From the NCBI GenBank assembly GCA_030427825.1, contig JAUICO010000006.1:16-64015 (forward strand): a DNA stretch of 64,000 bases. Reading direction: 5' to 3'. The notes under the pieces were generated by a model. The model ran no database searches. It was given only the letters and a program-made list of their open reading frames with translations, and was not told the DNA's origin. Below are positions 13,972-54,664 of the stretch, piece after piece (the first letter of the stretch is position 1; each line of letters begins with the position of its first letter). This stretch comes from a bacterium (GTDB taxonomy: Bacteria; Myxococcota_A; Bradymonadia; REDH01). Both the position numbers and the translations under genes were made by a program.

Positions 13972-16527
13972 ATGACAGTCGCCAGACTACTGCTCGCTAC
14001 GTCAGCGGCAATGCTCTTCGCATTGATGGGAGCTGCGCATGCGGCGTGCCCGGATCAGAACCTCGGTTCTCAGCTGGGAACGGTGGCGACGGGTTCTACA
14101 TGTGATGCGTTGAATGACGACGCCGGCAGCTGCGGGACGGTGAATGGGACGGATGAAGATGTCGCATTCGTTTGGACGGCGCCCGAGGCCGGCACCTACA
14201 CTTTTGCGACCCTCGGCTCGAGCTACGACACGGTAATCTACGTGCGCGACGGCGAGTGTGGCAGCACGGAGCTGGCCTGCGACGACGACACGGCGGACGG
14301 GACCCTGTCGCTCATCAGCGATCTGCCACTCGCGGCGGGTCAGACCGTCACGATTCATCTGGACGGCTACAGCGGGTGCGGAAACTACTCACTGACGATT
14401 GAGAATACGACGACGCCACCCTGCGCCGATGAGAACATCGGCTCGGCTCTTGGCGCGGTCTCCTCCGGGACCACCTGTGGGCTGGGAGACGTCATTGAGG
14501 GAAGCTGTGACAGCGGAAGCGGTGGCGAGGAGCGGATCATCGCGTGGACCGCGCCGCAGTCCGGCGACTACACTTTCAGCCTCGCCGGCTCCTCGTACGA
14601 TACGATTCTGTCGCTTCGCAACGGCGCATGTGACGGCGTGGAGCTCGGTTGCGATGATGACGGCATCGACATCGGTGGTGCATCGCGGCTCAGCGATGTG
14701 GCTCTGAGCGCGGGCCAGGAGATCTTCATCGTTGTCGATGGGTACACCGGCTGTGGCAGTTACTCGCTGAACATCTCCGGGAACTTCCCGGCCCCGTGTC
14801 CGGGCACCGACCTTGGCAGCGCGGTGGGCAACGGAGTGGCGGGCGGCACTACCGGCGGGACCTCGGGCATGACCTCGGGCTCCTTTGGAGACTGTTCCGG
14901 ATCGACCGGACCGGAGGCATCCTATCTTTGGACTGCACCGGCTACAGGCACCTACAGCTTCAGCACAGACAACGGCTCGACCAACTTCGATACAGTGCTC
15001 TATCTTCGCGCGGTCGGATGTTCGGGCGCGGTAATCGCGTGCAGCGACGATGAAGACCCGGGCGGCTTCTTTGGCGGCGGTAACTCGCGGTCGTCGATCT
15101 CGGGAATCAATCTCAGCGGCGGACAGCAGGTGGTGATTGTCGTCGACGGATACGACAGCACTGAGAGCGGTTCATTCGCCCTCGACATTGGCGGCGGCTG
15201 GTGCGGCGACGGCACCATTCAGGCAGGGGAAGAGTGCGACGGCGCCGGTACCGTGAACATCTCCGGTCAGTCCGACTGCGCGACGCTGGTGCCGGGTTCA
15301 TCAGGTGTTGTTGTTTGCGGCGAGACCGGAATCAGCGGTTGCCGGAGAGACACCAGCGGGTGCTCGGTGACCTGCACACCGAGCACAGAAGTGTGCGACG
15401 GGCTGGACAACGACTGCAATGACACCGTCGATGATGGCGGCTCGGCGTTGTGCAGCGACCCGCCAAACGCAAGCGGTGTGTGCAACGGATCTGCCGGCTG
15501 TGGGCTGATCTGCAACTCGGGCTTCTTTGACGGCAACGGCGACGTATCCGACGGATGCGAGAGTTCGTCGTGCCAACCGACGAACGGCGGCGTCGAAGTG
15601 TGTGATGGTTTGGACAATGATTGTGATGGTACCAATGACAATGGGGGCAACGCGCTGTGTGTAGACCCGGCAAACGCGACCGCAGTGTGCAACGGAGCAG
15701 CTGGGTGTGCGTTGGTTTGTGACAATGGGTTTGTCGACGCGAACGCTGATGCATCGGACGGCTGCGAAGTCGCGGTGCTCACGGACAGTGACGGGGATCA
15801 GGTACCCGATGCAAGTGACAACTGCCCCTTTACTGCGAACGTCGACCAAACGGACACAGATGGGGACGGCGTCGGTGACGCCTGTGACACCGTGGGCCCG
15901 GTAGACAGCGACGGTGACGGCATCAGCGACGAGAACGACAACTGCCCGCTGAACAGCAACCCGGGTCAGGAAGACAGCGACGGCGACGGCGCCGGCGACA
16001 TCTGCGACACGGGGGACCCGCCGGACGGCGACGGCGACGGCATCGCTGACGCAAACGACAACTGCCCCCTCGTCGCGAACGCGGATCAGGCAGACGACGA
16101 CAACGATGGCGTCGGAAATGTATGCGACACGACGGGCCCTGCGGCGGACACGGACGGCGACGGCGTCGTCGATTCCGAGGACAACTGCGTTGCTGCTTTT
16201 AATCCCGGGCAGGAAGACAGCGACTTCGATGGTATTGGCGATGTCTGCGATACAGGCACCCCCGGGGGCGATGCGGACGGCGACGGCGTGCCCGACGCTA
16301 CCGACAATTGTGTTCAGGTTCCCAATACCAGACAGACAGACACGGATCGCGACGGTATCGGCGACGCCTGTGACACGAACAACAACGCAGGTGGTGGCGG
16401 ATCGCGGCCGTCGGGAACGCGGGTGCGCGGCGGCTCCCTGTTTGGTTGTGCGTCATCGCAGGCGCCGGCCTCGGGCGTCGCGCTCCTGCTGATCGGTCTG
16501 CTCTGTGTGGTCAGACGTTTGAGGTGA
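13972..16527 (+). CDS. Large secreted multi-repeat protein with a MYXO-CTERM-like sorting tail.
   Basis: Signal peptide (MTVARLLLATSAAMLFALMGAAHA). Four ~125-aa N-terminal repeats (CPDQNLGS...GSSYDT...CDDD...GYSGCGNYSL). CGDG...EECD and CDGLDNDC(N/D)D cysteine repeats (Myxococcus-type / MopE-like). About ten thrombospondin-type-3-like Ca-binding repeats (DSDGDGI(A/S)DENDNCP). C-terminal GCASSQAPASGVALLLIGLLCVVRRLR. Confidence 0.75.
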   Translation: MTVARLLLATSAAMLFALMGAAHAACPDQNLGSQLGTVATGSTCDALNDDAGSCGTVNGTDEDVAFVWTAPEAGTYTFATLGSSYDTVIYVRDGECGSTELACDDDTADGTLSLISDLPLAAGQTVTIHLDGYSGCGNYSLTIENTTTPPCADENIGSALGAVSSGTTCGLGDVIEGSCDSGSGGEERIIAWTAPQSGDYTFSLAGSSYDTILSLRNGACDGVELGCDDDGIDIGGASRLSDVALSAGQEIFIVVDGYTGCGSYSLNISGNFPAPCPGTDLGSAVGNGVAGGTTGGTSGMTSGSFGDCSGSTGPEASYLWTAPATGTYSFSTDNGSTNFDTVLYLRAVGCSGAVIACSDDEDPGGFFGGGNSRSSISGINLSGGQQVVIVVDGYDSTESGSFALDIGGGWCGDGTIQAGEECDGAGTVNISGQSDCATLVPGSSGVVVCGETGISGCRRDTSGCSVTCTPSTEVCDGLDNDCNDTVDDGGSALCSDPPNASGVCNGSAGCGLICNSGFFDGNGDVSDGCESSSCQPTNGGVEVCDGLDNDCDGTNDNGGNALCVDPANATAVCNGAAGCALVCDNGFVDANADASDGCEVAVLTDSDGDQVPDASDNCPFTANVDQTDTDGDGVGDACDTVGPVDSDGDGISDENDNCPLNSNPGQEDSDGDGAGDICDTGDPPDGDGDGIADANDNCPLVANADQADDDNDGVGNVCDTTGPAADTDGDGVVDSEDNCVAAFNPGQEDSDFDGIGDVCDTGTPGGDADGDGVPDATDNCVQVPNTRQTDTDRDGIGDACDTNNNAGGGGSRPSGTRVRGGSLFGCASSQAPASGVALLLIGLLCVVRRLR

Positions 16528-27880: not shown

Positions 27881-29746
27881 ATGAGAGGAACTCAGCACCT
27901 GGTTTCAGCCCTCGTGGTGGCGTTGTGCTGCATGCACGGTGCCGCCGACGCGGGACCTCGCGCAGAAGCCGAGGCTGTGTATCGCTCTCTCGCGCCCACG
28001 GCAGACGCGGCTGCGAGTGAAATCGAGCGTGCGATCGTGGCGTGGTACGCGGGTGAGCGCCTGCGACCTGTGTTCACTGACGGCGTCGGCCTGACACCTC
28101 TGGGGGAGCGCGCGGCGAGGCTGATCGAAGGTGCGCACCGTGACGGGGTGGACCTGCAGGGTGTCGACCGTCGCCTGCGTGACGGGATCGAAGCGCTACG
28201 GCATCCGCCGGAGTTTCAGTGGCCGAGCTTCGTTCTTGCGGACGACCGTCACCTCACAGAGCTGGTTTCAGGCGCCCTGGCGCCGCCCCTGGGTGGAGCG
28301 GTACGACTCGCGCAACTGGTACGGCGCCTGGGCCCGAGCCGCATACGAGAGGAGACGGCGAACGCTGCGCGGGAGCAACTGGCGCAGCGTTTTCGCCTCG
28401 CGGCAGAGACGGAGTATGCGCTGGCCCATGTGGTGATGTACCAGGCTGAGCTGCGTGTTCTCGGGGAGGACAGCGTTCCGCTCGAGGTCATGGCCGCTGA
28501 TCGTGAGGCTGAGCGCTTCAACCGTCGGCAGCGCCGAAGAATCCGCCGCGGTCAGGTCGAGCCGGCCGCGGTGGACCACGTGCTGAGCTGGCGTCGGGAG
28601 ACGCTGGCGTCGCTGATGCCTCGGCTCGCCGCCCCGGCGTCCGCCGATGCGGTCATGCGCGATATCGAGCCGCGGTCGCCCCACTACGAGCCACTGATCG
28701 ACGTGCTCGCGCGTTACGAAGCGATCGTTGAGAGTGGCGGCTGGTGGACTCTCGCAGGCGACGAGGAGCTGCGGCTGGGCGACGAAGGCGGGCTCGTGCT
28801 CGCGCTGCGAAACCGACTTGCGGCCGAGGGATACGTCTCAGAAGCCGAGGACGAAGATGTCTTCGATACCGGTCTGAGAGATACGCTACAGCGATGGCAG
28901 GTCGACCGGCAGCTGATCCCAACCGGCACGGTCGACGAATACACCCGCGCCGCTCTCGACGTATCGGCGCCGGAGAGGCTGGCGCAGGTGATGATCGCCA
29001 TGCGGCGGCTGCGCCACAGCCCGGTACCCGCCACCGGCGACTACATTCGGGTGAACATCCCGCAGTTCGTCGGCGAGTACCGCGCCGACGGTGAGCTGCT
29101 GCACGAGTGGCGAAGCGTAGTCGGCAAGGTGCGCGGAAACGGCTCGAACTTCACGCCGGAGCTGCGCACACAAATCGGGGTCCTGGAGTTCAATCCATAC
29201 TGGTATCCGCCGAATCGTCTGGGTGGTTTGCGCGATGATGGGCAGCGGCGTGTGGTGGGCCCCGGGCCGTGGAATCCTATGGGGCAGGTGAAGTTTGTGC
29301 TTCCCAATACAAGCGCGATCTACCTTCACGATACCAACGACCCGGAGTGGTTTCGTGAGACCTGGCGCGCGGAATCACACGGATGTGTGCGTGTCGACAA
29401 CGCGTTGGACCTCGCGGCCGTAATCGTGTCGAGGGACCGGGGCTGGGAGATGGAACGCGCGGAAGCCTGGATCGAAGAAGTCATCGACGACGGCGCGACA
29501 GTGCGCTGGGAACCCGAGGGAGTCATCCCGGTCTTCTTCGAGTACATTACGGTTTGGGTGGACGGCGACCGGGTACGCTTCGGTACCGACCTCTATCGCT
29601 GGGACACAGACGAGTCCGAAGCGATCCTGCGTGAGCTGGACCATACCGGGCGCGCGACCATCACCGAGTCACGGTACACGCGCGCGGCACGTCTTCGTAC
29701 GCTGAGCCGCCGCCGCCACGATGTCGAGTTCGGCGGCTACGACTGA
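27881..29746 (+). CDS. YcbB/LdtD-like L,D-transpeptidase.
   Basis: Signal peptide. C-terminal YkuD domain with IYLHDTNDPEWF...SHGCVRV (catalytic His/Cys). Large N-terminal scaffold as in E. coli YcbB. Confidence 0.75.
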   Translation: MRGTQHLVSALVVALCCMHGAADAGPRAEAEAVYRSLAPTADAAASEIERAIVAWYAGERLRPVFTDGVGLTPLGERAARLIEGAHRDGVDLQGVDRRLRDGIEALRHPPEFQWPSFVLADDRHLTELVSGALAPPLGGAVRLAQLVRRLGPSRIREETANAAREQLAQRFRLAAETEYALAHVVMYQAELRVLGEDSVPLEVMAADREAERFNRRQRRRIRRGQVEPAAVDHVLSWRRETLASLMPRLAAPASADAVMRDIEPRSPHYEPLIDVLARYEAIVESGGWWTLAGDEELRLGDEGGLVLALRNRLAAEGYVSEAEDEDVFDTGLRDTLQRWQVDRQLIPTGTVDEYTRAALDVSAPERLAQVMIAMRRLRHSPVPATGDYIRVNIPQFVGEYRADGELLHEWRSVVGKVRGNGSNFTPELRTQIGVLEFNPYWYPPNRLGGLRDDGQRRVVGPGPWNPMGQVKFVLPNTSAIYLHDTNDPEWFRETWRAESHGCVRVDNALDLAAVIVSRDRGWEMERAEAWIEEVIDDGATVRWEPEGVIPVFFEYITVWVDGDRVRFGTDLYRWDTDESEAILRELDHTGRATITESRYTRAARLRTLSRRRHDVEFGGYD

Positions 29747-29755
29747 CCCGCAATC

Positions 29756-32149
29756 TCAGTTTGCCGGGTAGACGATGGCTTCAGAGACCTTGGCGATGCG
29801 GTCGATCACCAGGTTCTGGTAGGTCAGCTCATCGTCACCGGTGGTCGACACCCGGCCGGTCATGTGTTGCGCCCACTGCGTGCGAATGTGCTGTGTGAGC
29901 TCGCCCACCGTGATCGTTCCATCGGTGGGAAACACATCTGCGTCGCCGGCGAGGCCGGTGCGGATAAAGTGTGACAGGTAGCCGCCGGCTTCGAAGTTCT
30001 CTGCGACGAGTGAGATGACGTCTTCTTCAGAGGAGAAAATGCCGACGCGGTTTGGCTCGGTGACGAGGTCGCGGGCGAAGCCGCCGGAGAAGCACGCGTC
30101 CATCGCGATGATCTCCAGACGTGCATCGACAGGTTCCAACCACAGCGCCAGCTCGTCGTCATTGATGTGCCCGTCGCGAACATACATGGACTCGTCGCGT
30201 CCATCGGGTTCGCCTTCGTCTCCGGTGTCGCGCTGACCACCGTGCCCTGAGTAGAAGAAGAGGAAGGTGTCGTCGGGACCCACCTGCGCGGCGACGTCCG
30301 CGATTGCGCTCTGCAGGGCGTCACGGGTAACCTCGGCGTCGGTCAGCACCACACTCTCCGGTGCAAGAATGCCGGTCTCGGCCAACGAGCCGTGCAGCTT
30401 GGTCGCGTCGTCTGCGCAGTACGCCAGTGAGCTCTGGTCGACGTACTCGGTGATGCCGGCGATGACCGCGTAGATCTGCCCGCCGGGTCGTCCGTTCGTG
30501 ATGGAGGTCGCGAGAGCGCCCGTTGCCGGCACGCCGTCACTGATCGAGATTCGGTAGCTGCCGGTCTGCCCGGCACCGTACGAGGTGACAAAAACCTTCA
30601 TCAGTGTTCCGTCCGCTGCGACGCCGATCCGCGAGTTGTAGTTGCCCGGCTCCGCGTCGTCGTTTGCATCCGAGTAGCCGATGTCGGATTCGACAAGGAC
30701 GTAGGTATCGAAGTCGTCGGACTCCAGGTCGATCGTCAGCGCGGTGCCTGCGGGAGCCTGCACGGTGTACACATCGTAAAACTCACCGCTGGTGAAGGAC
30801 GGCTCGCTGCCGTCGAGAGTACCCGCGATCACATCGCCCACACGCAGGTCTGCGCCGGTTTCCGCAGGTACGCCGGTGGGCTCCTCTGTCAGCGCCGTGA
30901 TCAACCCGCCGCGTTGCAGGCTGAGGTTGAACGCTCCCGCCTCTTCGATCTCGTAGCTTGAGGCGATGATGTTCCATGCGCCCGATGTCGGGAGCACGTA
31001 GTCGATGCGGCTGTTGAAGTTGTCGACAGCCACGTCATCGTTCTCGGTGCCGCGGCCGTCGGGGCCCTGCAGAAAGAGGTAGGTGTCGAAGTCTGCTGAC
31101 GACAGATCGATGACCACGCGTTCGCCGGCGTGACCGGTAAAGGTGAAGCTCTCGACGCTCTGGCCTGTGGCACGTGTGGCGTCGCCGCCGTCGAGTTCAC
31201 CGGTCAGCGATTCGCCGTATGCGATCGCCGTAGCGCCGGAGGTCGCCGTCGGCTCTGCCTGCAGCGCGACGTCTTCCCGGTAGGCGCTGAGAGCGTAGGT
31301 ACCGCCGGTGGTTGAATCGTAGGGCCTGACAGTCAGGTAATAGGTGCCCGACTCCGGCGCGACAAAGCTCGCCCGGCTGTTTGTGCCCTGTCCGGGCGCG
31401 TCGTCGTTCGCGGTTGCAAAGCCGCCCGGTCCGTCGATCTCGACCACCGTGTCGAAGGCGTCCGAGCTCGCGACGACGACCACGCTCTGCCCGCCATCCA
31501 GTGCGACGGCCCAGCGGTCCATGGCGCCGCCGGAGATGTGGGTTGCATCCCCCTCATCGAGGCTGCCGGCCACGTCGGCGCCCAGCTCGAGAGCCATGGC
31601 GGGTGTGGGCGCCGGCAGTGCCATTTCGGCCGACGACAGAACGTAGCTTCCGGTCTCTCCGGGTGCGTAGCTGGTGACTTCGACGATATAGGCAGCGGTT
31701 TGCGGCAGTCGCACCCGTAGCCGTGCGTTGACGTTGTCGTGGCCACGGTCGTCGTTGAATTCCATGTAGCCGCCGGGTCCGCGTATCACGAGCCAGGTGT
31801 CGAACTCGTCCGAGTCGGCATCGAGAATCAGAACCTGGCCTGCGCGTCCGACGAAAGAGTAGCGATCCATGTACTCGCCGGTGTCGTAGGTCGGGTCGCC
31901 GTCTGCGAGGCTGCCCGCTACGCGCTCCGCGTCGGAGCCGCCGATGGCCAGCGGGATCGCTGAGGTACGGAGTTCCTCGATGAGGGGATCGGTGACCTCG
32001 GGAACCAACTCGGCGACCTCGACGACTGACTGTATGCCGTCGTCAACAGCTGCGCCCGGCGTCTCCGTGGCCTGGTTGCCGCCACAGGCGGCGATAGCGA
32101 GCGCGCCGCTGAGGGCGATGGCGCCCCGGATGATGCGATGGGTCGTCAT
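29756..32149 (-). CDS. Lipoprotein with 4-5 pre-peptidase C-terminal (PPC)-like repeats and a C-terminal peptidase C14 (orthocaspase) domain. Start reset to the ATG at 32149.
   Basis: MTTHRIIRGAIALSGALAIAACGG (lipobox), preceded by a GGAG RBS. Repeats of ~95 aa (LDxGD.T...G...D.Y.......V.I.L.S.DFDT.L.....G............N.R......GTY...V.SY....G.Y.LS). C-terminal FFYSGHG and IIAMDACFSGG form a caspase-type His/Cys dyad. Confidence 0.7.
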   Translation of the reverse strand: MTTHRIIRGAIALSGALAIAACGGNQATETPGAAVDDGIQSVVEVAELVPEVTDPLIEELRTSAIPLAIGGSDAERVAGSLADGDPTYDTGEYMDRYSFVGRAGQVLILDADSDEFDTWLVIRGPGGYMEFNDDRGHDNVNARLRVRLPQTAAYIVEVTSYAPGETGSYVLSSAEMALPAPTPAMALELGADVAGSLDEGDATHISGGAMDRWAVALDGGQSVVVVASSDAFDTVVEIDGPGGFATANDDAPGQGTNSRASFVAPESGTYYLTVRPYDSTTGGTYALSAYREDVALQAEPTATSGATAIAYGESLTGELDGGDATRATGQSVESFTFTGHAGERVVIDLSSADFDTYLFLQGPDGRGTENDDVAVDNFNSRIDYVLPTSGAWNIIASSYEIEEAGAFNLSLQRGGLITALTEEPTGVPAETGADLRVGDVIAGTLDGSEPSFTSGEFYDVYTVQAPAGTALTIDLESDDFDTYVLVESDIGYSDANDDAEPGNYNSRIGVAADGTLMKVFVTSYGAGQTGSYRISISDGVPATGALATSITNGRPGGQIYAVIAGITEYVDQSSLAYCADDATKLHGSLAETGILAPESVVLTDAEVTRDALQSAIADVAAQVGPDDTFLFFYSGHGGQRDTGDEGEPDGRDESMYVRDGHINDDELALWLEPVDARLEIIAMDACFSGGFARDLVTEPNRVGIFSSEEDVISLVAENFEAGGYLSHFIRTGLAGDADVFPTDGTITVGELTQHIRTQWAQHMTGRVSTTGDDELTYQNLVIDRIAKVSEAIVYPAN

Positions 32150-32284
32150 TTGTGTCTCCTGGGATGTAGCGACTGCACATCGAATCGATGCGTAGTCAGC
32201 GACGGGTGTACTGCGATCGCCGGAGCCGCGACTCCGTTGATGTCTTCTACTGACGCGCGAAACTGCAGAGCATTCTGCACGGAC

Positions 32285-32315
32285 GCTTTGGGGAAGCAAG
32301 AAGGCAGCTTCCCTG
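32285..32315 (-). terminator. Possible hairpin terminator after the cox-III/IV pair.
   Basis: GGGAAGC-9 nt-GCTTCCC perfect 7-bp stem, ~70 nt downstream of the subunit-IV stop. There is no U-tract, so it is weak. Confidence 0.25.
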
Positions 32316-32383: not shown

Positions 32384-32650
32384 TCAGGAGATCAGCGCCG
32401 CAATCAACGCGACGCCGAGGGCAACGAAGGTCGCACAATGCAGAGCGAGAGCCACGCGAGATGCCCGGAGGAGACCCATGAAGACGGCGCCGACGAGCAG
32501 GCACTTCGCGATGGCCATCGAGAGAATCGGGAGCGCGCCGGATGCCTCCGCAGCGACGCGCTGATCGACGAAATACATCGAGAAGGTCAGCGCCACGAGG
32601 ACGATCCACGTCACATCCACAAGGCGCGCATTGGCTCGTGCCGCGTTCAT
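32384..32650 (-). CDS. Small two-helix membrane protein, prokaryotic cytochrome-oxidase subunit IV-like.
   Basis: 88 aa, two TM helices. The ATG overlaps the subunit III stop as ATGA, which is the same arrangement as caa3-type coxIII-coxIV. Confidence 0.5.
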   Translation of the reverse strand: MNAARANARLVDVTWIVLVALTFSMYFVDQRVAAEASGALPILSMAIAKCLLVGAVFMGLLRASRVALALHCATFVALGVALIAALIS

Positions 32651-33252
32651 TGCGCCCCGACGAGATAGAGGAGGGGAAAGAGTAATATCCAGATCAGGTC
32701 GACGAGATGCCAGTACGTTGCGGTCGCTTCGACGGCGCCGGCATTCTCGGCGTAGGCATCCAATCGGCGCACCTTCCATGCCATCATGGCGGCAAACACG
32801 ATGCCGAAGAGCACGTGCATCAGGTGCATCAGGGTCAGGAAGATGTAGTAGAACCAGTAGTTGTTGGTCGACATCGTGATGCCGCCTTCCAGGGTGTGGC
32901 CATACTCCGCAAACTTGATGACGGTGAACACAACGCCCGACAGCGCGGTACCGACAAGCCATGCAGCTGCCGGCCGGCGCTCTTCGATCGCCAGCGCAGC
33001 GCGCGCCACCATCCAGCTGCCGGTCAGAAGCACTGCCGTATTGATGGTTCCGGACAGCACAGGGAGCGTCGCCTGTGAATCTCTATAGATGTCGGGGTCC
33101 GCAGAGTATCCTGCGGCATATGCGACGAAAAACATGGCGAATGTGAGCAGCTCGGCGACAACAACAATCCAAATGACTGTGCCGCCGGGGAGCGCATCCC
33201 ACCAGTGCGCGTTTTTCTGGTTTTCGTTTCTATTCTCGATAGTTGCGGACAT
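32647..33252 (-). CDS. Haem-copper oxidase subunit III family protein (Cox3/NorE-like).
   Basis: YWHLVDLIWILLFPLLY matches the YWHFVD(V/I)VWLFLY subunit III signature. 5 TM helices, 201 aa. Confidence 0.75.
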   Translation of the reverse strand: MSATIENRNENQKNAHWWDALPGGTVIWIVVVAELLTFAMFFVAYAAGYSADPDIYRDSQATLPVLSGTINTAVLLTGSWMVARAALAIEERRPAAAWLVGTALSGVVFTVIKFAEYGHTLEGGITMSTNNYWFYYIFLTLMHLMHVLFGIVFAAMMAWKVRRLDAYAENAGAVEATATYWHLVDLIWILLFPLLYLVGAQ

Positions 33253-46206: not shown

Positions 46207-47019
46207 ATGACGATGTTCCGAGCCACAATCATTGCCGTGGTGTGCCTGTTTTTCGCAGCGCCCGTGTTGGCGCAGAGCGAAGCTGAAGAGGCGGGAAACC
46301 GCGCGATTGACGCTGTGACCGGCGGTTCCGACGACGGGGGAGACTCCGCGGAAGGCGCTGCCGATGTCGAAGCCGCGGGGGCGGACGGCGAAGAAGCTGA
46401 CGACGCTGACGACACGGTGACCGGCGACGGCGTGAACCCGAACGACACGGGTAGCGGCGTGGCAGGCGCGTTGGACGACGGCAGCTACGGTCTTCGAATC
46501 GAAGAGCTTGAGGATCAGGTCAACGAGCTGAAGGAGGACGTGTTCCGCTCGAAGTCGCGCCTGTTCCTGCTTCGTGAGCAGATCCTACAGGACAACATCG
46601 GTGGAGCCCGCGCCATCATTGAGCACAAGAGTGAGTTCGGGAACCGACTCCTGATCACGCAGGTGCTCTACAGTCTCGACGGCGACCTGGTGTTCAGCAC
46701 GACCGCCGAAGAGGCGGAGGTCGACTCTCTCGACGACATCCTGATCATGAACGACGCCATTCTACCCGGCCCGCACAACATCTCAGTGCAGATGAGCATA
46801 GAGGGTAACAGCAGTTTCTTTTCGTACCTCAACGGATACCACTTCACGATCACCTCGTCTGAGGCCTTCTCGGTAGAGCAGGGGCAGACGGCTGAGGTTG
46901 ATGTCGTGGCATTTGAGCGTGGCGACTCGAACGAGCCCTTCGAGGAGCGACCTACGGTCCGCTTCGAAGTGGATCTCTACGCCACGACTGAAGTTGAAGG
47001 CACCGACGGAGGATCATGA
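46207..47019 (+). CDS. Secreted protein with an acidic N-terminal region. First gene of the envelope-machine cluster.
   Basis: Signal peptide (MTMFRATIIAVVCLFFAAPVLAQS), D/G/E-rich segment, then a ~150-aa domain. Its stop overlaps the next start as ATGA. Confidence 0.5.
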   Translation: MTMFRATIIAVVCLFFAAPVLAQSEAEEAGNRAIDAVTGGSDDGGDSAEGAADVEAAGADGEEADDADDTVTGDGVNPNDTGSGVAGALDDGSYGLRIEELEDQVNELKEDVFRSKSRLFLLREQILQDNIGGARAIIEHKSEFGNRLLITQVLYSLDGDLVFSTTAEEAEVDSLDDILIMNDAILPGPHNISVQMSIEGNSSFFSYLNGYHFTITSSEAFSVEQGQTAEVDVVAFERGDSNEPFEERPTVRFEVDLYATTEVEGTDGGS

Positions 47020-49319
47020 TGTCAATTGGTGGGCTGTATCGCGGCCCGCGAACGCAGGCCGCGCTGCTCGGCGCGATCGTGTTGTTCGCGCCATCGGTGC
47101 TTTTTGCGCAGAGCGTGACGGCGCTCTCATCCCAGGCGGACGAGCTCAGTGTCTCCGTCGATGAGTTGAATCGCGGACTTGTGCGCCCTGAGTTGGAGCG
47201 ACATGAGGTCGATCCCGGCCGCCGCGCTGCGGAAGGCGAAGTGCTCTTCCTGGTCGGTGACTACGAAGGCGCCGCCACCTCGCTGGCGGAGCTGGTAGAG
47301 AGCCGGGAACACGCGGCGCATCCGGCGATGCCGCGGGCGCGCTACATTCTGGCAGAGAGTCTGTACCAGGTCGGCGCCTATAGTATCGCTGCGGATTACT
47401 TTGAGACAGTGCTTGCGGGCCCCGAGGTCGACTATCAGCGCGACGCTGCGGTCCGTCTGCTCGAGATCGCGTTGAAGCTTCGTCGCTATGAAGAAGTGGA
47501 CCAGCGATATGGTCAGATGCTGGCTCGCTTCGGCGATGATCTGGGTGACCGCCTCGCCTATCTTCAGGGTCGGGCGCGGCACCTGAGCGGCGACTACAAT
47601 GCTGCAGTGACCGCGTTCCGTACTGTTCCTGCGAATTCGGACCTGTACGTGCAGAGCAGGTACCTCGCAGGAATCGCGCTGGTACAGCTCGATGATCTTG
47701 AGAACGCGATGGCGGAATTCGCTGCGGCCTCCGAGCTGAGCGCTGAAGCGATGCCGGGCACTCCTGAGCACGACGTTCATCAGCTGGCCCAGCTCGCGAT
47801 TGGCCGTCTGAACTACGAGTCATCGGCGTTCACCCCCGCGGTACTGGCGTACGCGCAGGTCGACTCGCAGAGCGATCACTTCTTCGATGCGATCTACGAG
47901 ATGTCCTGGACGCTGATCCGTGAGGAGCGTTTTACTGACGCCATCTACAACCTTGAGCTGCTGTACCTGCTCAGCGAAGGCGCACACTCGCGATATCGCG
48001 CTGAGGCGGGTCTCGTGGTGGGCGACCTTTACCGACGCAATGAGCGCTTCGACGACGCAGTGCGTTCCTTTGGTGATGTGGTCGAAGAGTTCGAGCCGAC
48101 AAGGGCCCGCATCGATGACCTCCTCCGCGGGGGGCACTCGGTGCTGGAGATCTACAACGCACTGGTCGGACACGACGACACGTTGCGGACGGGGCTTCGA
48201 GTCAGCGACTGGGTCGAAGAGACTCCGGAGATGACCCGCGCCATGGGCGTAATCCGCGACGCTGCCCGCCTGGAAGGGTGGGTCGAGAGTGCACGTGACA
48301 CGGTCAATGCACTCGACGCGGCCCTGAATTCGCGCAGCCGAGTGGATATCTTCCCTGAGCTGCGCAACGCGTGGGCACACCTGGTGGGTGCGCAGGGCAC
48401 GAGCCTGCAGATCCGTTCTGACCTTCTCGAGGTCGAGCGCGAGCGCTCCTACGCGACGCTTCCGCCGGCGGAGCAGACACGTCTGGGCGAGCTGCGCGCA
48501 TTGAGCACGGCGGCGTGGACGGAGTTCGGAAACACCCCCAACAGCTTCGATGAGCTGCTGGAAGTGGAGACGCAGCGTGGAGATGAGATCCAGGCGATGA
48601 TTCTTGATGTGTATCGCACGGAGCTGCAGCTGGAAGGCGAGCTCCGCGAAGTGCAGTCCATGCGGGATATGCTTCGCGAGCGAGTTCGTCGCGGCGAGAC
48701 GAGTCGCGACGTGGCCCTCCAGGCCGAGGCCGAGCTTATTGCTGAAGAAGAGCGCATCCACTCGGCGATGCGTGAACGGCGCGAGCTGCGCGAGCGGCTT
48801 GAAGTTCGCGCGGCTACGACCGGTGTAGGCGGAATCTCCGCCGACTCGGAACGTGCGGCGCAGGAAGTACTGTTCGCCTTCGCTCAGGAACATGACCTGA
48901 TCGCCGGCGCCGGCGCCACCTACGACGATCTCAATGACGTCTACGCGAAGCTGGACGACATCGACCGACGAATCGGAATCTCCTTTTCAGCGATCGATTC
49001 ACTGGTTCAGGACGTGTTGCTGGGATTCCACCAGGTCCTTGCGGATGAGAGTCGACGACTTGAGGCATACGAGGCGGTGCTTCGCCGGTACGAGCGCTCC
49101 GGCGCGACCGTCGCCGGCAGCATCGCCATGGACAGCTTCAGGCAGGTCCGCGATCGTGTCGCCGAGATTACGCTGCGAGCGAATCTGGGGATGATCGATA
49201 TCAAGTGGTGGGAGAAGGAAAGCGTGACCCGGCGGATTTCGGACCTGTTCGAGGAGAAGGACCGCCAGTTGCGGATTCTCGACGCCGACTTCGCAGAGAT
49301 TCGTCTCTCGGACGATTGA
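47016..49319 (+). CDS. Secreted TPR-repeat protein (767 aa).
   Basis: Signal peptide. Multiple TPR-like helical hairpins (AADYFETVLAGPEVDYQRDAAVRLLEIALK...). Coiled-coil C-terminus. Translationally coupled on both sides. Confidence 0.65.
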   Translation: MMSIGGLYRGPRTQAALLGAIVLFAPSVLFAQSVTALSSQADELSVSVDELNRGLVRPELERHEVDPGRRAAEGEVLFLVGDYEGAATSLAELVESREHAAHPAMPRARYILAESLYQVGAYSIAADYFETVLAGPEVDYQRDAAVRLLEIALKLRRYEEVDQRYGQMLARFGDDLGDRLAYLQGRARHLSGDYNAAVTAFRTVPANSDLYVQSRYLAGIALVQLDDLENAMAEFAAASELSAEAMPGTPEHDVHQLAQLAIGRLNYESSAFTPAVLAYAQVDSQSDHFFDAIYEMSWTLIREERFTDAIYNLELLYLLSEGAHSRYRAEAGLVVGDLYRRNERFDDAVRSFGDVVEEFEPTRARIDDLLRGGHSVLEIYNALVGHDDTLRTGLRVSDWVEETPEMTRAMGVIRDAARLEGWVESARDTVNALDAALNSRSRVDIFPELRNAWAHLVGAQGTSLQIRSDLLEVERERSYATLPPAEQTRLGELRALSTAAWTEFGNTPNSFDELLEVETQRGDEIQAMILDVYRTELQLEGELREVQSMRDMLRERVRRGETSRDVALQAEAELIAEEERIHSAMRERRELRERLEVRAATTGVGGISADSERAAQEVLFAFAQEHDLIAGAGATYDDLNDVYAKLDDIDRRIGISFSAIDSLVQDVLLGFHQVLADESRRLEAYEAVLRRYERSGATVAGSIAMDSFRQVRDRVAEITLRANLGMIDIKWWEKESVTRRISDLFEEKDRQLRILDADFAEIRLSDD

Positions 49320-49363
49320 TGCGGACACTTTGGAACATAGCACCGACACCTTCGAGGAAAGGG

Positions 49364-52300
49364 ATGCGATCAATTTTTCATAACCGCGCAATGGTCTGCG
49401 TTTATGTCGCGGCGGCGTTGACTGCCGGCGCGGCAGTCGCCGTGGACAGTCGTGCCCATGCGGACTCCGGGGCTCCGGCTGACTTCGCAGTGGGGGGCTC
49501 GCCAGAGGCTCTGACTCCGTTTGAGCATCCCGAGAGCGAGCTGCTCGCTCAAGCGGCGGAAGGCGAAGAGGCTGAAGGCAGTGAGCGCACGCTCCTGTCG
49601 CGCCCGATGCCTGGAACCGATGAAGTCGAGGCGAGCGCCATTACGGACTTCGAGCGCGCTCTGCGTGACTACGAAGAAGAGATGCTCGACTACCGACGAA
49701 GCATCGAGCAGGTTGTTGAGGTCGAATACCTGAGTCGTCGCGGCCAGATTCGAGACTTCTTCCAGGACGAAATCGACGCGCTTCGTATCGAAGAGCGTGC
49801 GCGGCGTGCCGAGGCAATCGCAGACTTCGAGGGCTTCCTTGAGCGCTTTCCGAATCACCCGGACTACGCGCCGGACGTCATCTTTCGCCTCGCCGAGCTG
49901 AACTACGAAAAGGCAGAGGATGACTACCTTCTTGCCGACATCGAGTACGCCGAGTTGGAGCAGCGCTACGACCTTGGTCTGATCGCAGAGCTGCCAGACC
50001 CGCCGGAGAAGAACTTCAACCCCAGCATCCGGCTCTTTGAGCGCCTGCTGAATCAATTTCCCGACTACCGTCAGGCGGACGGCGCGTACTATCTGTTGGC
50101 GATGTGCCAGCTGCAGATGGACGAGTACGATCCATCGCTGGCGAACTTCACAACCCTCGTGTCCGCGTACCCCAACTCCGACTTTGCTCAGGAAGGCTGG
50201 CTGCGTATCGGCGAGTTCCACTTTATGGAGTTGGACTTTCAGCTCGCCCGTGCCGCGTACGAGCGTGCGATCGAGTACGGTGACTCTATCTGGTACGACA
50301 AGACCCTCTTCAAGCTGGGCTGGTCGAACTACCTGTTGAACGACTACGACACCGCGATCAACAACTTCCAGACTCTGTTGCGCTACTACGGCGAAGATGA
50401 CGATGGGGCGACGGAGAAGGCTGTGCGTGAAGAAGCGCTGCAGTACTTCGCGATCGCGGTGTCCGAAGAGGACTGGGACTTCGACGGTGAGGTGGATGAA
50501 GGATTCGTCCTCGGTCGGGTGGAACAGTACCTGAGCGAAGATGAGCCGTTTACGGTTGAAGTGCTCGACCGGATCGCGACGATGTTGATGGACAATCAGC
50601 GTCATCAGCACGCCATCGACGTGCATCGCTACATTCTTGAGCGGTACCCGTTGGATCCGGAGAACCCGAAGCGTCACGAGCAGATCATTATCGCATTCTC
50701 GCGAATGAATGAGATTCCGCAGGCTCTCGCTGAAGGTCGGCGTCTGGGCGAGCTCTATGGCCCGGACTCCGAGTGGTGGCGAGCCCAGGAGATGGAAGGA
50801 AACCTGGAGCAGATGGCCTACGCCGAGCAGCTTGCACGTGACATGCTCTTTCAGACGGCGAACACGCTCTATGTTGAGGGCGACGACCTCGCTGCGCGCG
50901 CCATCATTGAGGGCGATGACACGCTCCTCGCGCAGTCGGTGCAGCGCTACCAGGCCGCTGCGCAGATCTATGAGGAGTTCCTGAGCCTCTACCCGAACGA
51001 TCCCGAAGCCTACACCGTGCAGATGTATCTCGGTCAGGCCCGCTTTAACTCGGATGAGTTCGCGGAGGCGGCCACCGCTTTCGCCGCAGTTCGCGACTCA
51101 CAGATCAGCAATCAGTTCCGCGTCGCAGCTGCGGGTCTCACGATCTCTGCCTATGAAAAGGCTCTAGAGAAGGCCATCGACGCGGGCGAGCTCGACGGAA
51201 TCGCGTGGCCGGCGCATCGGGACAATGTCCTCGCGGACCTTCTGCCCGATATCGGCATCGAGGCCGAAGACGATGAGGATGACGAAGACGAGGCGGGTAG
51301 CGGCCCGCGCGACGCGTCGCAGATTCCGGTTCCCGAGCTGTCGGGGTTGTGGGCGGCGTCGATCGACCGCTACGTCGAGATGGACCTGAACGCAGAGGAT
51401 GATCCCACTCAGCAGGGTCGCTACGGCTACAACGCCGCGATCATGTACTACCTGCATGGCCATTACAACGAGGCGAAGGAACGATTCGCGTACATCGTTG
51501 AGAACTACTGCGGTCAGGATGAGGTCGGATTCTCGGCCGGCTTCCTGATGAACTCCGCTCGTCTCTCGGGCGCCTTCTCGGAAGCCGATGCAGTCAAGCA
51601 GTTGATCGAGCGACGAGTCGCCGCCAATTGTGTGGACCCGGAGATTCTGGCCGCGCTTGAGCGCGACATGGATCTCATGATCATCGGAATCGCGTTCGAA
51701 GCGGCCGAGGCCTACTACCGCGAAGGAGACTACCTCGCGGCGGCGCAGGAATATGTGCGCGTGGTCAATCAGTACCCGGAGAACGAAGACGCTGCGAAGG
51801 CGCTGTTTAATGCGGGTCTGATCTACGAGCAGGACCTGCGGATGAACGAGCTGGCGATGCGCCAGTTCGACCGCGTCATCGCGGAGTACCCGCAGAGCGA
51901 GTTCATCAACGACACGCTGGTGCGTATCGCGATCAACTCGAAGCGCTTCTTCGATTTCGATCGCGCCATCTCGACCTTCCAGCTTCTCTACGACCGCGGC
52001 TACAACAGCGACCTGGTGGAGCATCCGCTCCTCGATGCGGCACAGCTGCGCGACTATTCACAGCAGCACCGCGAAGCGATACGATCGTACGAAGAGTGGT
52101 TGGGTGACAATGCGAATGACCCGCGCGCTCCGGCGGTTCTGTACCAGACGGCGGTGATCTACCGACGTCTCGGCGACGAGCGTGCCGCGATTCGTGCTCT
52201 TGAGCGGTTCCGCCAGCAATACGGCCGACGTCAGAGCGACATCATCGATGTGGACGCCGCGGTCATCGACTCGCTGCACGCTGAGATGGAGTACTACGAA

Positions 52301-52987
52301 GCGAACAACAACACGCGCTCGTACAACCGCGCCCTGGACCAGCTGCTGGACGAATTCTCCGCTCGGAACCCGGACAACCCGGAGTCGACATACGTTGTGG
52401 CGGAACTCGCCTACAACAACGTTGTTGAAGAGTACGAAGAGTGGGACTCCGCCGATCTGGGCGAGACTCTCAGTACGCAGCGAACACGCCTGACGGAGCG
52501 TCGAGAGGGAATGCAGGATCTGTTGGACCGCTTTGACGCGGTGTCAGGCTTCAACTCTGCGGATTGGACCGTGTGTGCCTGGTACATGAGAGGACGAGTC
52601 TACCAGCGCATGGCGGACCTGCTCTACAGCCTGCCGACACCGGATTTCCGTGGCGACTACGACGCAGAGGATGAGTACGTCCTGCAGATTGAAGGCTTCG
52701 CATCGCAGTACGAGGATGCGGCTGTCCTGGAATGGCAGGCGACCTATCCGCTCATGCAGCAGCTGGGCGTTGTTAACGAATGTACCTACAATATGACCCG
52801 TGAGCTGAACCGATACCGCGGTGGCGAGTTTCCGATCTTCCGAGAGGCGGAGACCCACATGGAGAGCGTGCTCTTTGCGCCGCAGGTCTTTGCGGTTCCA
52901 CGCCTTGAGGTTGAGGACGAGCAACGTGAATCGATCCGTCTCCATGACGAAGACGAAGCCGGCGATGCCGATGAAGGACAGGAGTAA
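49364..52987 (+). CDS. Large secreted TPR-repeat protein (~1210-1260 aa), GltD/AgmU-sized. Start either 49319 or 49364; 49364 has a GGAAAGGG RBS.
   Basis: Signal peptide (MVCVYVAAALTAGAAVAVDSRAHA). >10 TPR-like repeats throughout and an acidic C-terminus. Confidence 0.65.
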   Translation: MRSIFHNRAMVCVYVAAALTAGAAVAVDSRAHADSGAPADFAVGGSPEALTPFEHPESELLAQAAEGEEAEGSERTLLSRPMPGTDEVEASAITDFERALRDYEEEMLDYRRSIEQVVEVEYLSRRGQIRDFFQDEIDALRIEERARRAEAIADFEGFLERFPNHPDYAPDVIFRLAELNYEKAEDDYLLADIEYAELEQRYDLGLIAELPDPPEKNFNPSIRLFERLLNQFPDYRQADGAYYLLAMCQLQMDEYDPSLANFTTLVSAYPNSDFAQEGWLRIGEFHFMELDFQLARAAYERAIEYGDSIWYDKTLFKLGWSNYLLNDYDTAINNFQTLLRYYGEDDDGATEKAVREEALQYFAIAVSEEDWDFDGEVDEGFVLGRVEQYLSEDEPFTVEVLDRIATMLMDNQRHQHAIDVHRYILERYPLDPENPKRHEQIIIAFSRMNEIPQALAEGRRLGELYGPDSEWWRAQEMEGNLEQMAYAEQLARDMLFQTANTLYVEGDDLAARAIIEGDDTLLAQSVQRYQAAAQIYEEFLSLYPNDPEAYTVQMYLGQARFNSDEFAEAATAFAAVRDSQISNQFRVAAAGLTISAYEKALEKAIDAGELDGIAWPAHRDNVLADLLPDIGIEAEDDEDDEDEAGSGPRDASQIPVPELSGLWAASIDRYVEMDLNAEDDPTQQGRYGYNAAIMYYLHGHYNEAKERFAYIVENYCGQDEVGFSAGFLMNSARLSGAFSEADAVKQLIERRVAANCVDPEILAALERDMDLMIIGIAFEAAEAYYREGDYLAAAQEYVRVVNQYPENEDAAKALFNAGLIYEQDLRMNELAMRQFDRVIAEYPQSEFINDTLVRIAINSKRFFDFDRAISTFQLLYDRGYNSDLVEHPLLDAAQLRDYSQQHREAIRSYEEWLGDNANDPRAPAVLYQTAVIYRRLGDERAAIRALERFRQQYGRRQSDIIDVDAAVIDSLHAEMEYYEANNNTRSYNRALDQLLDEFSARNPDNPESTYVVAELAYNNVVEEYEEWDSADLGETLSTQRTRLTERREGMQDLLDRFDAVSGFNSADWTVCAWYMRGRVYQRMADLLYSLPTPDFRGDYDAEDEYVLQIEGFASQYEDAAVLEWQATYPLMQQLGVVNECTYNMTRELNRYRGGEFPIFREAETHMESVLFAPQVFAVPRLEVEDEQRESIRLHDEDEAGDADEGQE

Positions 52988-54664
52988 ATGTTGATGAAGA
53001 CTCGCATTCATCAGGTTGCGGTACTTGTCCTCGCCGGGCTGCTTGCTGCCTGCGGTAGCAAGCAGAGCGCTACTGAGGGCAGCACAGGCACCACCCGTCC
53101 GGACGCCCGACCGACTGCACAGGCAGCAGCGCCCAACGCCTCCCCTGCGCAAGCGCCTGCCCCGGCCGCTGCGCCGACAGAAACGATTGCGGAAGCAGAG
53201 CCCGCTCCGGAGGATGCGGCGCCCATCGTGGCGCCTGAAGACGGTACCATTGAAGAGCGTCTGATGTACCGGATGGAGGAGGCCGTTGATCGCGCCCGCC
53301 GCGGTAATTTCGAGATCGCGAAGGTGGAGTTGCTTCAGCTGCTGCGCGAAGACCAGGTGGCTGCATACGCGGCTTACAACCTTGGTGTCATCGCGTACTA
53401 TGAGGGTCAGACCGGTCAGGCGCTGGAATATTACGAAGTCGCGCTCGAGCAGGACCCGACCTTCGCCCCACCGTTGCTCGCGACGGTGCGTCATCACATG
53501 GCGGGTGGCGATACATCGGTGGCTCGCGACCTGGTCCGACGACAACTGCAGAACTCGGAAAACGCGCCGACCGTTCAGGGCGTCGAGTTGTACCTGACGC
53601 TGGCCGACGGTCGCTACGAACAGGTTATCCAGGACGGTCGCCAGGTATTGATCGCTGACGCCGGCAATATGGATGCGCATTTCACGATGGCGATGGCGCA
53701 CTACAACCTGGGCCGGCTTGAGCTCGCTCGCTATATTCTCGAAGAGGGAATCTCGCGCGACGAAGGCCGTCCCGATTTCTACTTTGCTCTTGCTCGCATC
53801 TACCTTGACCGCGACGAGAAGATCCGCGCGCGAACCTACCTCGAGCGGGCGCTTGAAATTGACTCGAGTCACCCGGAAGCGAGCAACAACCTCGGCGTGC
53901 TGAATCTCGAGTCACGAAACTTTGAAGCGGCAGAACAACTGTTTCGCGGTGCCATCGAGCGTGCTCCGAACTACGAAGAAGCGTGGGTGAACCTGGGGAA
54001 CGCGTTGAAAGGTCAGCAGCGATACAATGAGGCCCGTGATGCATACAACCGGGCCATGCAGATGAGCCCGACCTATCCGGCGCCGTACTACAACCTGGGA
54101 ATTCTCTTTCTGGATACCGAGATGGACGGACTGGGTGAGGCGGACCGAATTCAGCGCGCGCTGGAGTACTTCAGCGACTTCCGAACCCGCTACGGTGCGG
54201 GTCTTCCCGCAGAGCATCCGGTCAACACCTACCAGAGTGAAGCGGTTGCACGCCTCGAAGTCATTCGCGAGCTGGAGCAGAGTGCGCAGCTGGAGCAGGA
54301 GCAGGACACACGGCAACCGGAGCAGTCCAATCAGGAAGGCGGGTACGCCGATCAGGCTTGCTTCGACGACTTCTGTGTTGACGATGCCGATCCGGACCAG
54401 TGCTACCAGGATTTCTGCGGAGGCTCCGGCAGTGACGGCGGCGATAGCGGGACGCCGGCGAGCTATCCGGACCAGGGATGCTTTGAAGAGTTTTGTGAAG
54501 GGGAGATGGACGAAGCCCAGTGCTATGAGGACTTCTGTGGCGGCTCCGACGACGAAGACACTGAGAGCTCGGATGGCGGCGGCTATGAAGACCAGCAGTG
54601 TTTCGACGACTTCTGCGCGGGCGATGCCGACCCCGACCAGTGCTACCGCGACTTCTGCGAGTAG
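52988..54664 (+). CDS. TPR-repeat lipoprotein with a C-terminal 4x Cys-rich acidic repeat.
   Basis: MLMKTRIHQVAVLVLAGLLAACGSK (lipobox). TPR repeats (YNLGVIAYYEGQTGQALEYYEVALEQDP...). The C-terminus carries four copies of Q.CF(D/E)(D/E)FC....D..QCY.DFCGG. Confidence 0.7.
   Translation: MLMKTRIHQVAVLVLAGLLAACGSKQSATEGSTGTTRPDARPTAQAAAPNASPAQAPAPAAAPTETIAEAEPAPEDAAPIVAPEDGTIEERLMYRMEEAVDRARRGNFEIAKVELLQLLREDQVAAYAAYNLGVIAYYEGQTGQALEYYEVALEQDPTFAPPLLATVRHHMAGGDTSVARDLVRRQLQNSENAPTVQGVELYLTLADGRYEQVIQDGRQVLIADAGNMDAHFTMAMAHYNLGRLELARYILEEGISRDEGRPDFYFALARIYLDRDEKIRARTYLERALEIDSSHPEASNNLGVLNLESRNFEAAEQLFRGAIERAPNYEEAWVNLGNALKGQQRYNEARDAYNRAMQMSPTYPAPYYNLGILFLDTEMDGLGEADRIQRALEYFSDFRTRYGAGLPAEHPVNTYQSEAVARLEVIRELEQSAQLEQEQDTRQPEQSNQEGGYADQACFDDFCVDDADPDQCYQDFCGGSGSDGGDSGTPASYPDQGCFEEFCEGEMDEAQCYEDFCGGSDDEDTESSDGGGYEDQQCFDDFCAGDADPDQCYRDFCE

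Follow-up and report, generated by a model that had tools for sequence, protein, structure and literature searches.

A predicted lipoprotein with N-terminal PPC repeats and a C-terminal caspase-like domain: one member of a widespread subfamily of exported C14 peptidases

Discussion of bacterial caspase homologues usually centres on programmed cell death and anti-phage immunity. What, then, is such a domain doing at the far end of a protein that begins with an export signal? The question is raised by one gene on the minus strand (29756-32149) of a 64,000-nucleotide stretch of contig JAUICO010000006.1, from a member of the Bradymonadia (Myxococcota_A; GenBank assembly GCA_030427825.1). We refer to the whole of this stretch as the window. 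An earlier reading of the letters alone (the sequence-only reading) described the product as a lipid-anchored protein with four or five PPC (pre-peptidase C-terminal) repeats ahead of a caspase-type domain, called this domain order reversed, and connected the protein with cell death and development in Myxococcota.

The gene product is probably a cysteine endopeptidase of family C14 (clan CD) that is exported and tethered to the membrane. It belongs to an uncharacterised but widespread subfamily with a signal peptide, three to six PPC repeats and a C-terminal caspase-like domain. The architecture is not rare and has been catalogued since 2012; the gene is a further, lipid-anchored member of this subfamily of exported C14 peptidases. 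Since 29 full-length homologues align with the protein from end to end at 31-45% identity, the arrangement is not a chance one.

Export signal, PPC repeats and caspase-like domain

The open reading frame (ORF) and its translation give a product of 797 amino acids. The ATG at 32149 is the likely start, because an AGGAG motif with a 6-nt spacer lies 5' of it and a signal peptide follows immediately; a longer mechanical ORF reaching a TTG at 32299 was rejected, as it has no comparable start-site support. A protein identical to the product is present in NCBI and carries no annotated name.

In the N-terminus (MTTHRIIRGAIALSGALAIAAC), a positively charged n-region and a hydrophobic h-region precede a lipobox (I-A-A-C, residues 19-22) that matches the bacterial lipoprotein pattern [LVI][ASTVI][GAS]C. 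Cys22 is thus predicted to be lipidated, in line with the earlier claim of a lipid-anchored protein. The following tether (residues 23-63) contains nine Asp/Glu and no Lys/Arg up to residue 60. In a full-length AlphaFold2 model built from the 29 homologues (mean predicted local distance difference test score, pLDDT, 80.5), a signal helix is followed by a disordered segment (22-53), four beta-sandwiches, a disordered 15-residue linker (541-555) and a C-terminal alpha/beta domain.

The beta-sandwiches correspond to the PPC repeats. Pfam PPC (PF04151) matches in four stretches (E 3.7e-20; 73 bits against a cutoff of 25.9), and a hidden Markov model (HMM) made from the protein's own repeats delimits exactly four units (64-185, 181-303, 304-427 and 426-550). 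These share 30-36% pairwise identity and the pattern G-x-L-x-x-G-D ... D-x-Y-x-F ... S-x-x-F-D-T ... N-D-D ... T-S-Y ... G-x-Y-x-L. The repeats were defined by MAFFT alignment and the repeat HMM; self-BLASTP of the protein returned the identity match only. Of the 'four or five' repeats first proposed, four therefore stand. The fifth does not, because residues 23-60 are disordered and match no repeat model. Among PDB structures, the array resembles the tandem collagen-binding domains of ColG (5iku; Foldseek E 6e-11, profile E 0.005). An above-threshold Pfam score and a collagenase-type collagen-binding beta-sandwich fold place the repeats in the PPC class, but not the position C-terminal to a peptidase that gave the class its name: here, as in 75 of 75 relatives, they are N-terminal.

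The C-terminal domain matches Pfam Peptidase_C14 (PF00656) over residues 560-694 (E 2.9e-11; 43.9 bits against a cutoff of 21.4), so both families named in the sequence-only reading score above their cutoffs. A separate model of residues 541-797, from a 43-sequence alignment, has a pLDDT of 88.3 and a predicted template modelling (pTM) score of 0.88. Its 50 best fold matches in the PDB are all clan CD peptidases (probability 1.00), including the Candida glabrata and yeast metacaspases, MALT1, GSU0716, Arabidopsis metacaspases 4 and 9, TbMCA2 and legumain. The template modelling (TM) scores on query length are 0.54-0.70 (mostly 0.6-0.7) over some 240-380 alignment columns, which means that essentially the whole domain is covered. 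The corresponding part of the full-length model also retrieves metacaspases, GSU0716 and MALT1, and the family profile matches GSU0716 (3BIJ, 5.8e-25), AtMC4 (3.8e-23) and Yca1 (4e-22). As modelled, the domain thus has the caspase/hemoglobinase alpha/beta fold of family C14 and clan CD.

The proposed catalytic motifs, FFYSGHG and IIAMDACFSGG, are present as quoted in the earlier reading. His636 aligns with the catalytic His of YSGHG in Yca1, TbMCA2 (His158), AtMC4 and GSU0716, and Cys686 with Yca1 Cys276 and AtMC4 Cys139; in the chains 4f6p and 6w8r, which are C-to-A mutants, this position holds Ala. In the model, each residue lies two positions beyond the end of a strand (628-634 and 678-684), in the contexts FLFFYSG-H636-G and LEIIAMD-A-C686. 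This is the His-then-Cys order of the clan CD 'H-G ... A-C' motifs, which follow hydrophobic beta-strands. On the modelled fold, His636/Cys686 is a probable catalytic dyad. The earlier reading was to be given up if the domain lacked a caspase-like fold or if these residues were not placed as a dyad; the model has a caspase-type fold, and the sequence alignments put the two residues at the catalytic positions of solved metacaspases.

What would such an enzyme cut? In the summary of McLuskey et al. given in PMC6426788, the basic-P1 pocket of TbMCA2 is shaped by Cys92, Asp95, the Ser of YSGHG and Asp211. In alignments these correspond to C578 (Cys92), D581 (Asp95), S634 (Ser156) and D684 (Asp211) of the query. 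H636, C686, D581, S634 and D684 are invariant in the 29 full-length homologues, and the His and Cys motifs are intact in 76 of 76 sequences from 75 other genomes. Given the conserved acidic S1 pocket (D581, S634 and D684), cleavage after Arg/Lys is the specificity expected from the alignments. Moreover, an invariant acidic cluster (D649, E653, D659 and D664) aligns with the acidic EDGMDD...DDE region of Yca1, and by analogy Ca2+ dependence of the catalytic domain is plausible.

Orthocaspases are defined in PMC6426788 as prokaryotic C14 proteins that have a p20 region with the His-Cys dyad and no p10 detectable by HMM. Sequence similarity to solved metacaspases stops just past the catalytic Cys. 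Because no p10 region is detectable by sequence, the domain is an orthocaspase by this operational definition, and the label used in the earlier reading is a fair one. Structurally, a p10-equivalent half appears to be present in the model, contiguous and joined by a very short loop (fold alignments of about 260 columns). Assignment to the type I metacaspases was rejected: the N-terminus consists of a signal peptide and PPC repeats rather than a Pro-rich/zinc-finger prodomain, and there is no p10 sequence match.

The mature protein is very acidic (isoelectric point ~4). Lys and Arg make up 4.8% of the protein (only 3 Lys), compared with 8-12% in neighbouring gene products and a family median of 7.5%. 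So few Lys/Arg are what a protease cutting after basic residues might show; the signal is weak, though, because acidity is a property of the whole genome. The features of the gene are collected in Table 1.

Table 1. Positions in the window of the gene, its start signal and the parts of its product
Feature	Coordinates	Strand	Basis
Whole gene: lipoprotein signal, tether, 4 PPC repeats, C14 domain (797 codons + stop)	29756..32149	-	ORF, translation, Pfam PPC x4 + Peptidase_C14
Shine-Dalgarno AGGAG, 6 nt upstream of ATG	32156..32160	-	Sequence reading
Signal peptide with lipobox, residues 1-22, MTTHRIIRGAIALSGALAIAAC, Cys22 predicted lipidated	32084..32149	-	Sequence pattern; model helix 6-20; lipoboxes at the same place in 14 Polyangiales/Sandaracinaceae homologues
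Acidic tether, residues 23-63, mostly disordered, short helix 55-63	31961..32083	-	pLDDT <50 at 22-53; composition
PPC repeat 1, residues 64-180	31610..31960	-	Pfam PF04151; repeat HMM; model beta-sandwich, strands 75-176
PPC repeat 2, residues 181-303	31241..31609	-	Best Pfam PPC stretch (211-275); repeat alignment, HMM, model
PPC repeat 3, residues 304-425	30875..31240	-	Pfam, repeat alignment, HMM, model
PPC repeat 4, residues 426-540	30530..30874	-	Pfam, repeat alignment, HMM, model
Disordered linker between PPC repeat 4 and catalytic domain, residues 541-555, PATGALATSITNGRP	30485..30529	-	pLDDT <50
C14 caspase-like (orthocaspase/metacaspase-like) domain, residues 556-797	29759..30484	-	Pfam PF00656; sequence matches to GSU0716, Yca1, TbMCA2 and AtMC4; fold matches
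Predicted catalytic His636 codon (FFYSGHG)	30242..30244	-	Aligned to metacaspase His; invariant in 29/29, 43/43 and 76/76 sequences
Predicted catalytic Cys686 codon (MDACFSGG)	30092..30094	-	Aligned to Yca1 Cys276 and AtMC4 Cys139; invariant in family

Spread and layout of the subfamily

How unusual is this arrangement? A first homology search returned about 44 clusters with PPC and C14 domains at 31-45% identity over the full length. They came from Gemmatimonadota, 'Deltaproteobacteria' and gammaproteobacterial metagenome-assembled genomes (MAGs), and some were named 'caspase family protein'. A scan of one genome per species found relatives encoded in at least 519 species genomes, with a best match of 42% identity to the query. 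The 80 best genomes belong to Brevundimonas, other Caulobacterales, Sphingomonadaceae, Myxococcota (Sandaracinaceae, Polyangiales and Bradymonadia) and Gemmatimonadota, with one Sumerlaeia MAG. Cultured Brevundimonas carriers include B. poindexterae, B. halotolerans, B. bacteroides DSM 4726 and B. staleyi.

To examine the architecture, 75 complete or near-complete genes were extracted from relatives. In all 75, the PPC repeats lie at the N-terminal side and the protein closes with the caspase domain, which in most complete genes runs for 109-125 residues past the Cys. The motifs FF[YF]SGHG and D[SA]C[FY][SA]G are intact in every extracted member. The number of repeats varies: four is most common (n = 48), followed by five (n = 23), six (n = 4) and three (n = 1). 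Searched exhaustively with HMMER, the catalytic domain alone recovered 232 clusters (at the 50% identity level; E <= 1e-30). Nearly all of the best 150 carry it at the C-terminal end of a protein of 400-1300 amino acids. Shorter forms, with one PPC repeat and a caspase domain (about 400 amino acids), also exist. The 'reversed' order thus stands as a description (the PPC repeats do precede the protease), but not as an oddity, given a fixed layout in 75 of 75 members, the breadth of the species scan and a catalogue entry from 2012.

That entry is found in the supplement of Asplund-Samuelsson et al. 2012 (PMC3501461), which lists YP_003818492.1 of Brevundimonas subvibrioides ATCC 15264, a protein of 793 amino acids with PPC domains at 53-119, 180-248, 313-381 and 448-514 followed by a bacterial C14 domain at 535-778. 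The same paper reports that many bacterial metacaspase homologues bear N-terminal signal-like helices or extracellular domains. Our literature search for PPC combined with caspase/orthocaspase found no main-text description; the architecture appeared only in this one supplementary table.

Export is common to the family, but the lipid anchor is not. A signal peptide stands at the start of all complete members. A lipobox occurs in 14 of the 19 extracted members labelled as Myxococcota (about 17 with a usable N-terminus); these 14 come from Polyangiales and Sandaracinaceae. Alphaproteobacterial members have none before repeat 1 and apparently carry ordinary type I signal peptides. The same is true of the three Myxococcota/Bradymonadia members closest to the query, which also lack a lipobox before repeat 1 and look like proteins with ordinary signal peptides. 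As far as N-terminal patterns tell, the lipid anchor is lineage-specific (Polyangiales/Sandaracinaceae members) and not a family trait.

The repeats themselves have a wider distribution. The same PPC subtype is found in arrays of four to eight repeats with no recognisable catalytic domain (P0045, P0047 and about 70 Brevundimonas proteins of 604 amino acids), and C-terminal to a putative metallopeptidase domain, DUF4344 (P0069). Brevundimonas genomes encode both a PPC-only protein and a PPC-caspase protein. Polyangiales/Sandaracinaceae members (L059, L063, L064, L067, L069, L070, L072, L076, L077, L081 and L082) have a stretch of about 110 amino acids between PPC repeats 1 and 2 that is missed by the repeat HMM; by eye, this stretch (about residues 150-265 of the family proteins) looks like a degenerate PPC-like beta-sandwich without the NDD motif. 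Some Myxococcota genomes hold two paralogous PPC-caspase genes (L070 and L080 in OZ245758.1; L063 and L073 in MAG HCUG1432-5).

Proposed function and competing explanations

Taken as an exported and tethered C14 peptidase, the protein would work as follows. From its sequence pattern, it would be exported by the Sec system, cleaved by signal peptidase II and lipidated at Cys22. Because Gly stands at +2 in place of the classical inner-membrane retention residue, general lipoprotein rules make an outer-membrane anchor likely. The acidic disordered tether of about 40 residues and the four rigid PPC beta-sandwiches would then keep the catalytic domain off the membrane. The PPC modules are homologous, in fold and sequence, to the collagen-binding domains of clostridial collagenase; the array may serve as a spacer and/or as a module that probably binds a polymeric or insoluble ligand. 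The C-terminal domain would be an active protease through His636/Cys686, with an acidic S1 pocket directing cleavage after Arg/Lys, and may depend on Ca2+, as it has a conserved acidic cluster where metacaspases carry an acidic loop. Its role would be to cut proteins outside the cytoplasm, either in the periplasm or on the cell surface (e.g. turnover of envelope/extracellular proteins, or nutrition/predation in the source Myxococcota lineage).

Several points weigh against this reading. Activity, P1 preference and Ca2+ dependence are carried over from homologues. The Pfam C14 match spans only profile positions 3-139 of 233, so that the p10-equivalent half is seen in the fold and not in the profile. 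The three-dimensional geometry of the dyad is taken from fold superposition scores, and the full-length model has a pTM of 0.45, which makes its inter-domain geometry unreliable. Finally, we found no experimental study of the subfamily in the searchable literature.

A bolder version can be put forward, though we think it unlikely. Members of the subfamily may be the first clear bacterial C14 caspase homologues that act outside the cytoplasm: Ca2+-dependent, Arg/Lys-specific proteases on a PPC stalk that binds a specific envelope/extracellular polymer (of the producer or its prey) and so positions or gates the protease. The lipid-anchored form in predatory Myxococcota (e.g. the Bradymonadia-like source of the window) might then be a contact-dependent surface weapon or a nutrient-harvesting enzyme.

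The alternative that survives best concerns the fate of the repeats. The PPC array could be a removable pro-region or secretion aid, a part that PPC domains play in many secreted proteases, with (auto)cleavage in the linker (residues 541-555, which include Arg553) releasing a soluble 27-kDa protease, so that the tethered form is a zymogen. This scheme is compatible with a tethered C14 peptidase and overlaps with it rather than excluding it. The linker is predicted to be disordered and holds one of the few basic residues of a Lys/Arg-poor protein, as expected for a protease cutting after such residues. Removal of PPC domains on maturation is established for other peptidases, and the orthocaspase MaOC1 autoprocesses. 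PMC11379387 gives vEP-45 as an example of PPC removal during maturation. Even so, we consider the scheme rather improbable. The position of Arg553 is not conserved: the family consensus has an Arg three residues later, where the query has Gln, and the alignments do not support Arg553 as a conserved autoprocessing site. Besides, C14 proteins in general often have a basic residue ahead of strand 1. The sequence and number of the repeats are also strongly conserved across phyla, which argues for a function in the mature protein.

Much less credible is the role suggested by the sequence-only reading, in which the protein would act like a caspase in Myxococcota, executing or regulating programmed cell death or development. 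C14 homology speaks for it. According to PMC3501461, the abundance of bacterial metacaspases correlates with morphological complexity, Deltaproteobacteria are rich in them, and extracellular metacaspases might, speculatively, act in fratricide. However, the export signal and lipobox place the catalytic domain outside the cytoplasm, and the family reaches its highest abundance in Brevundimonas, Caulobacterales and Sphingomonadaceae, which are non-developmental, with further members in Gemmatimonadota. Nor does the context help: there are no NTPase, death-like or effector neighbours and no conserved partner genes, and the gene's own neighbours are housekeeping ones (purL, an L,D-transpeptidase gene and leuS). 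A cell-death role is thus unsupported for an exported protein whose relatives are common in non-developmental bacteria, and the protein would not be a cytoplasmic cell-death executioner.

It is more doubtful still that the domain is a catalytically dead pseudo-orthocaspase with a binding/scaffold role only. Pseudo-variants make up 8.6% of bacterial orthocaspases, but typically have Tyr/Ser in place of the dyad residues (PMC6426788); in the present family the His, Cys, pocket Asp and Ser are invariant in all members examined. Membership of an intracellular conflict/anti-phage system (EACC1-associated or PADLOC-type modules) is the least probable of all and effectively refuted: the match to NCBIfam NF047832 ('caspase, EACC1-associated type'; residues 560-758) takes in nearly the whole model but, at 49.2 bits, falls short of the curated cutoff of 140; only positions 2-141 of the 453 in the PADLOC 'caspase' model are matched (residues 558-704); and no effector or NTPase partner lies near the gene of this exported protein.

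For the window itself, the outcome is the routine annotation of a predicted lipoprotein, an exported C14 peptidase with PPC repeats. For the field, the protein draws attention to a sizeable, conserved subfamily, with 232 clusters at 50% identity and members in at least 519 species genomes, that is exported and so must find its substrates outside the cytoplasm. Cultured Brevundimonas carriers make the subfamily tractable, both for a non-death role of a bacterial caspase-like protease and for the ligand of this PPC subtype.

Genomic setting and known systems

The gene is flanked by purL, a gene for a YcbB-like L,D-transpeptidase (with YkuD, PG_binding_1 and Scaffold domains), a COX3-like/COX4-like pair and leuS. 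The leuS product (LeuRS) gives moderate support to the origin of the window in Myxococcota, from an uncultured lineage: its best named matches are proteins of Myxococcales and Bradymonadia MAGs, at 71-72% identity. It is convergent with the L,D-transpeptidase gene (27881-29746, plus strand), with 9 nt between the stop codons, a pairing that recurs in none of 86 related loci. In the same 86 loci, no adjoining ORF of the window gene recurs beside it. A single neighbour match was shared across related loci (an ORF of 182 amino acids about 5 kb away, in 4 loci). All-against-all clustering of neighbours gave no partner common across phyla, and the largest cluster (18 loci) is nearly all alphaproteobacterial. 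The PPC-caspase gene stands alone, with no conserved partner. One homologue's locus has a Peptidase_C11 gene (clostripain family, also clan CD) immediately downstream on the opposite strand (L001/L002, 10657-12108), which was not seen in other related loci.

The COX3-like/COX4-like pair (32384-33252, minus strand), which ends 235 nt upstream of the PPC-caspase gene, consists of a COX3-like protein (PF00510, 200 amino acids) followed by a small COX4_pro-like membrane ORF (a weak match, 22 bits) whose true start is probably an internal Met near the COX3 stop codon. It lies between leuS and the caspase gene, with no COX1 or COX2 gene adjoining. There is no second PPC-caspase copy and no Rfam family within the window, and a promoter/terminator scan around the gene found nothing. 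Elsewhere in the window, 13972-16527 (plus strand) encodes an extremely acidic 851-amino acid protein with thrombospondin type-3 (Ca2+-binding) repeats; its isoelectric point is 4.05, Lys and Arg together make up 2% and lysine is absent altogether. At 47016-54664 (plus strand), large TPR-repeat proteins are encoded three in a row (767, 1260 and 558 amino acids), the middle one with a YfiO/BamD-like segment.

Among catalogued proteins, the closest in layout is B. subvibrioides YP_003818492.1, which has the same architecture and a nearly equal size (793 amino acids, four PPC domains within 53-514 and C14 at 535-778). Brevundimonas relatives align with query residues ~66-784 at 35-40% identity and keep the His/Cys motifs intact. 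The difference from alphaproteobacterial members lies in the lipobox before repeat 1, which the query has and they do not.

For the catalytic domain, the best sequence and fold matches are GSU0716 (Geobacter sulfurreducens, 3BIJ), Yca1 (4F6O), C. glabrata MCA1 (7QP0/7QP1) and TbMCA2 (4AFP). The query, GSU0716 and the type I metacaspases share YSGHG, D-x-C-x-S-G, the S1-pocket Asp/Ser equivalents and an acidic EPDGxDE-type loop, at 17-22% identity in structural alignments. Unlike these metacaspases, the query has neither a Pro-rich/zinc-finger prodomain nor a p10 recognisable by sequence. GSU0716 and the metacaspases are cytoplasmic and have no PPC domains; the query is the opposite on both counts.

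In function, analogues may be found in the gingipains of Porphyromonas gingivalis (C25, clan CD), which are exported and surface-associated, prefer Arg/Lys at P1 and carry beta-sandwich adhesion modules. They belong to family C25 rather than C14, have the opposite domain order and use type IX secretion with a C-terminal sorting domain. No gingipain turns up in the top 50 PDB folds matched by the catalytic domain.

Cyanobacterial orthocaspases (e.g. MaOC1 of Microcystis aeruginosa) have in common with the query a p20-type domain, the His-Cys dyad, acidic Asp residues in the specificity pocket and the lack of a p10 by sequence (PMC6426788). In described orthocaspases, however, the catalytic domain is usually N-terminal and accessory domains follow it, whereas in the query it comes last of all, preceded by an export signal and a PPC array. 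The cyanobacterial proteins discussed in the papers cited here are also not exported lipoproteins.

The repeats, in turn, invite comparison with the ColG collagen-binding domains s3a-s3b (5IKU) and with the PPC domains (PF04151) of secreted peptidases. Like them, the query's repeats are tandem beta-sandwich modules on a secreted peptidase, and the array superposes on the tandem ColG domains. In collagenases and most PPC-bearing peptidases the modules come after the catalytic domain, while in the query they come before it, and the conserved FDT...NDD motifs are specific to its PPC subtype.

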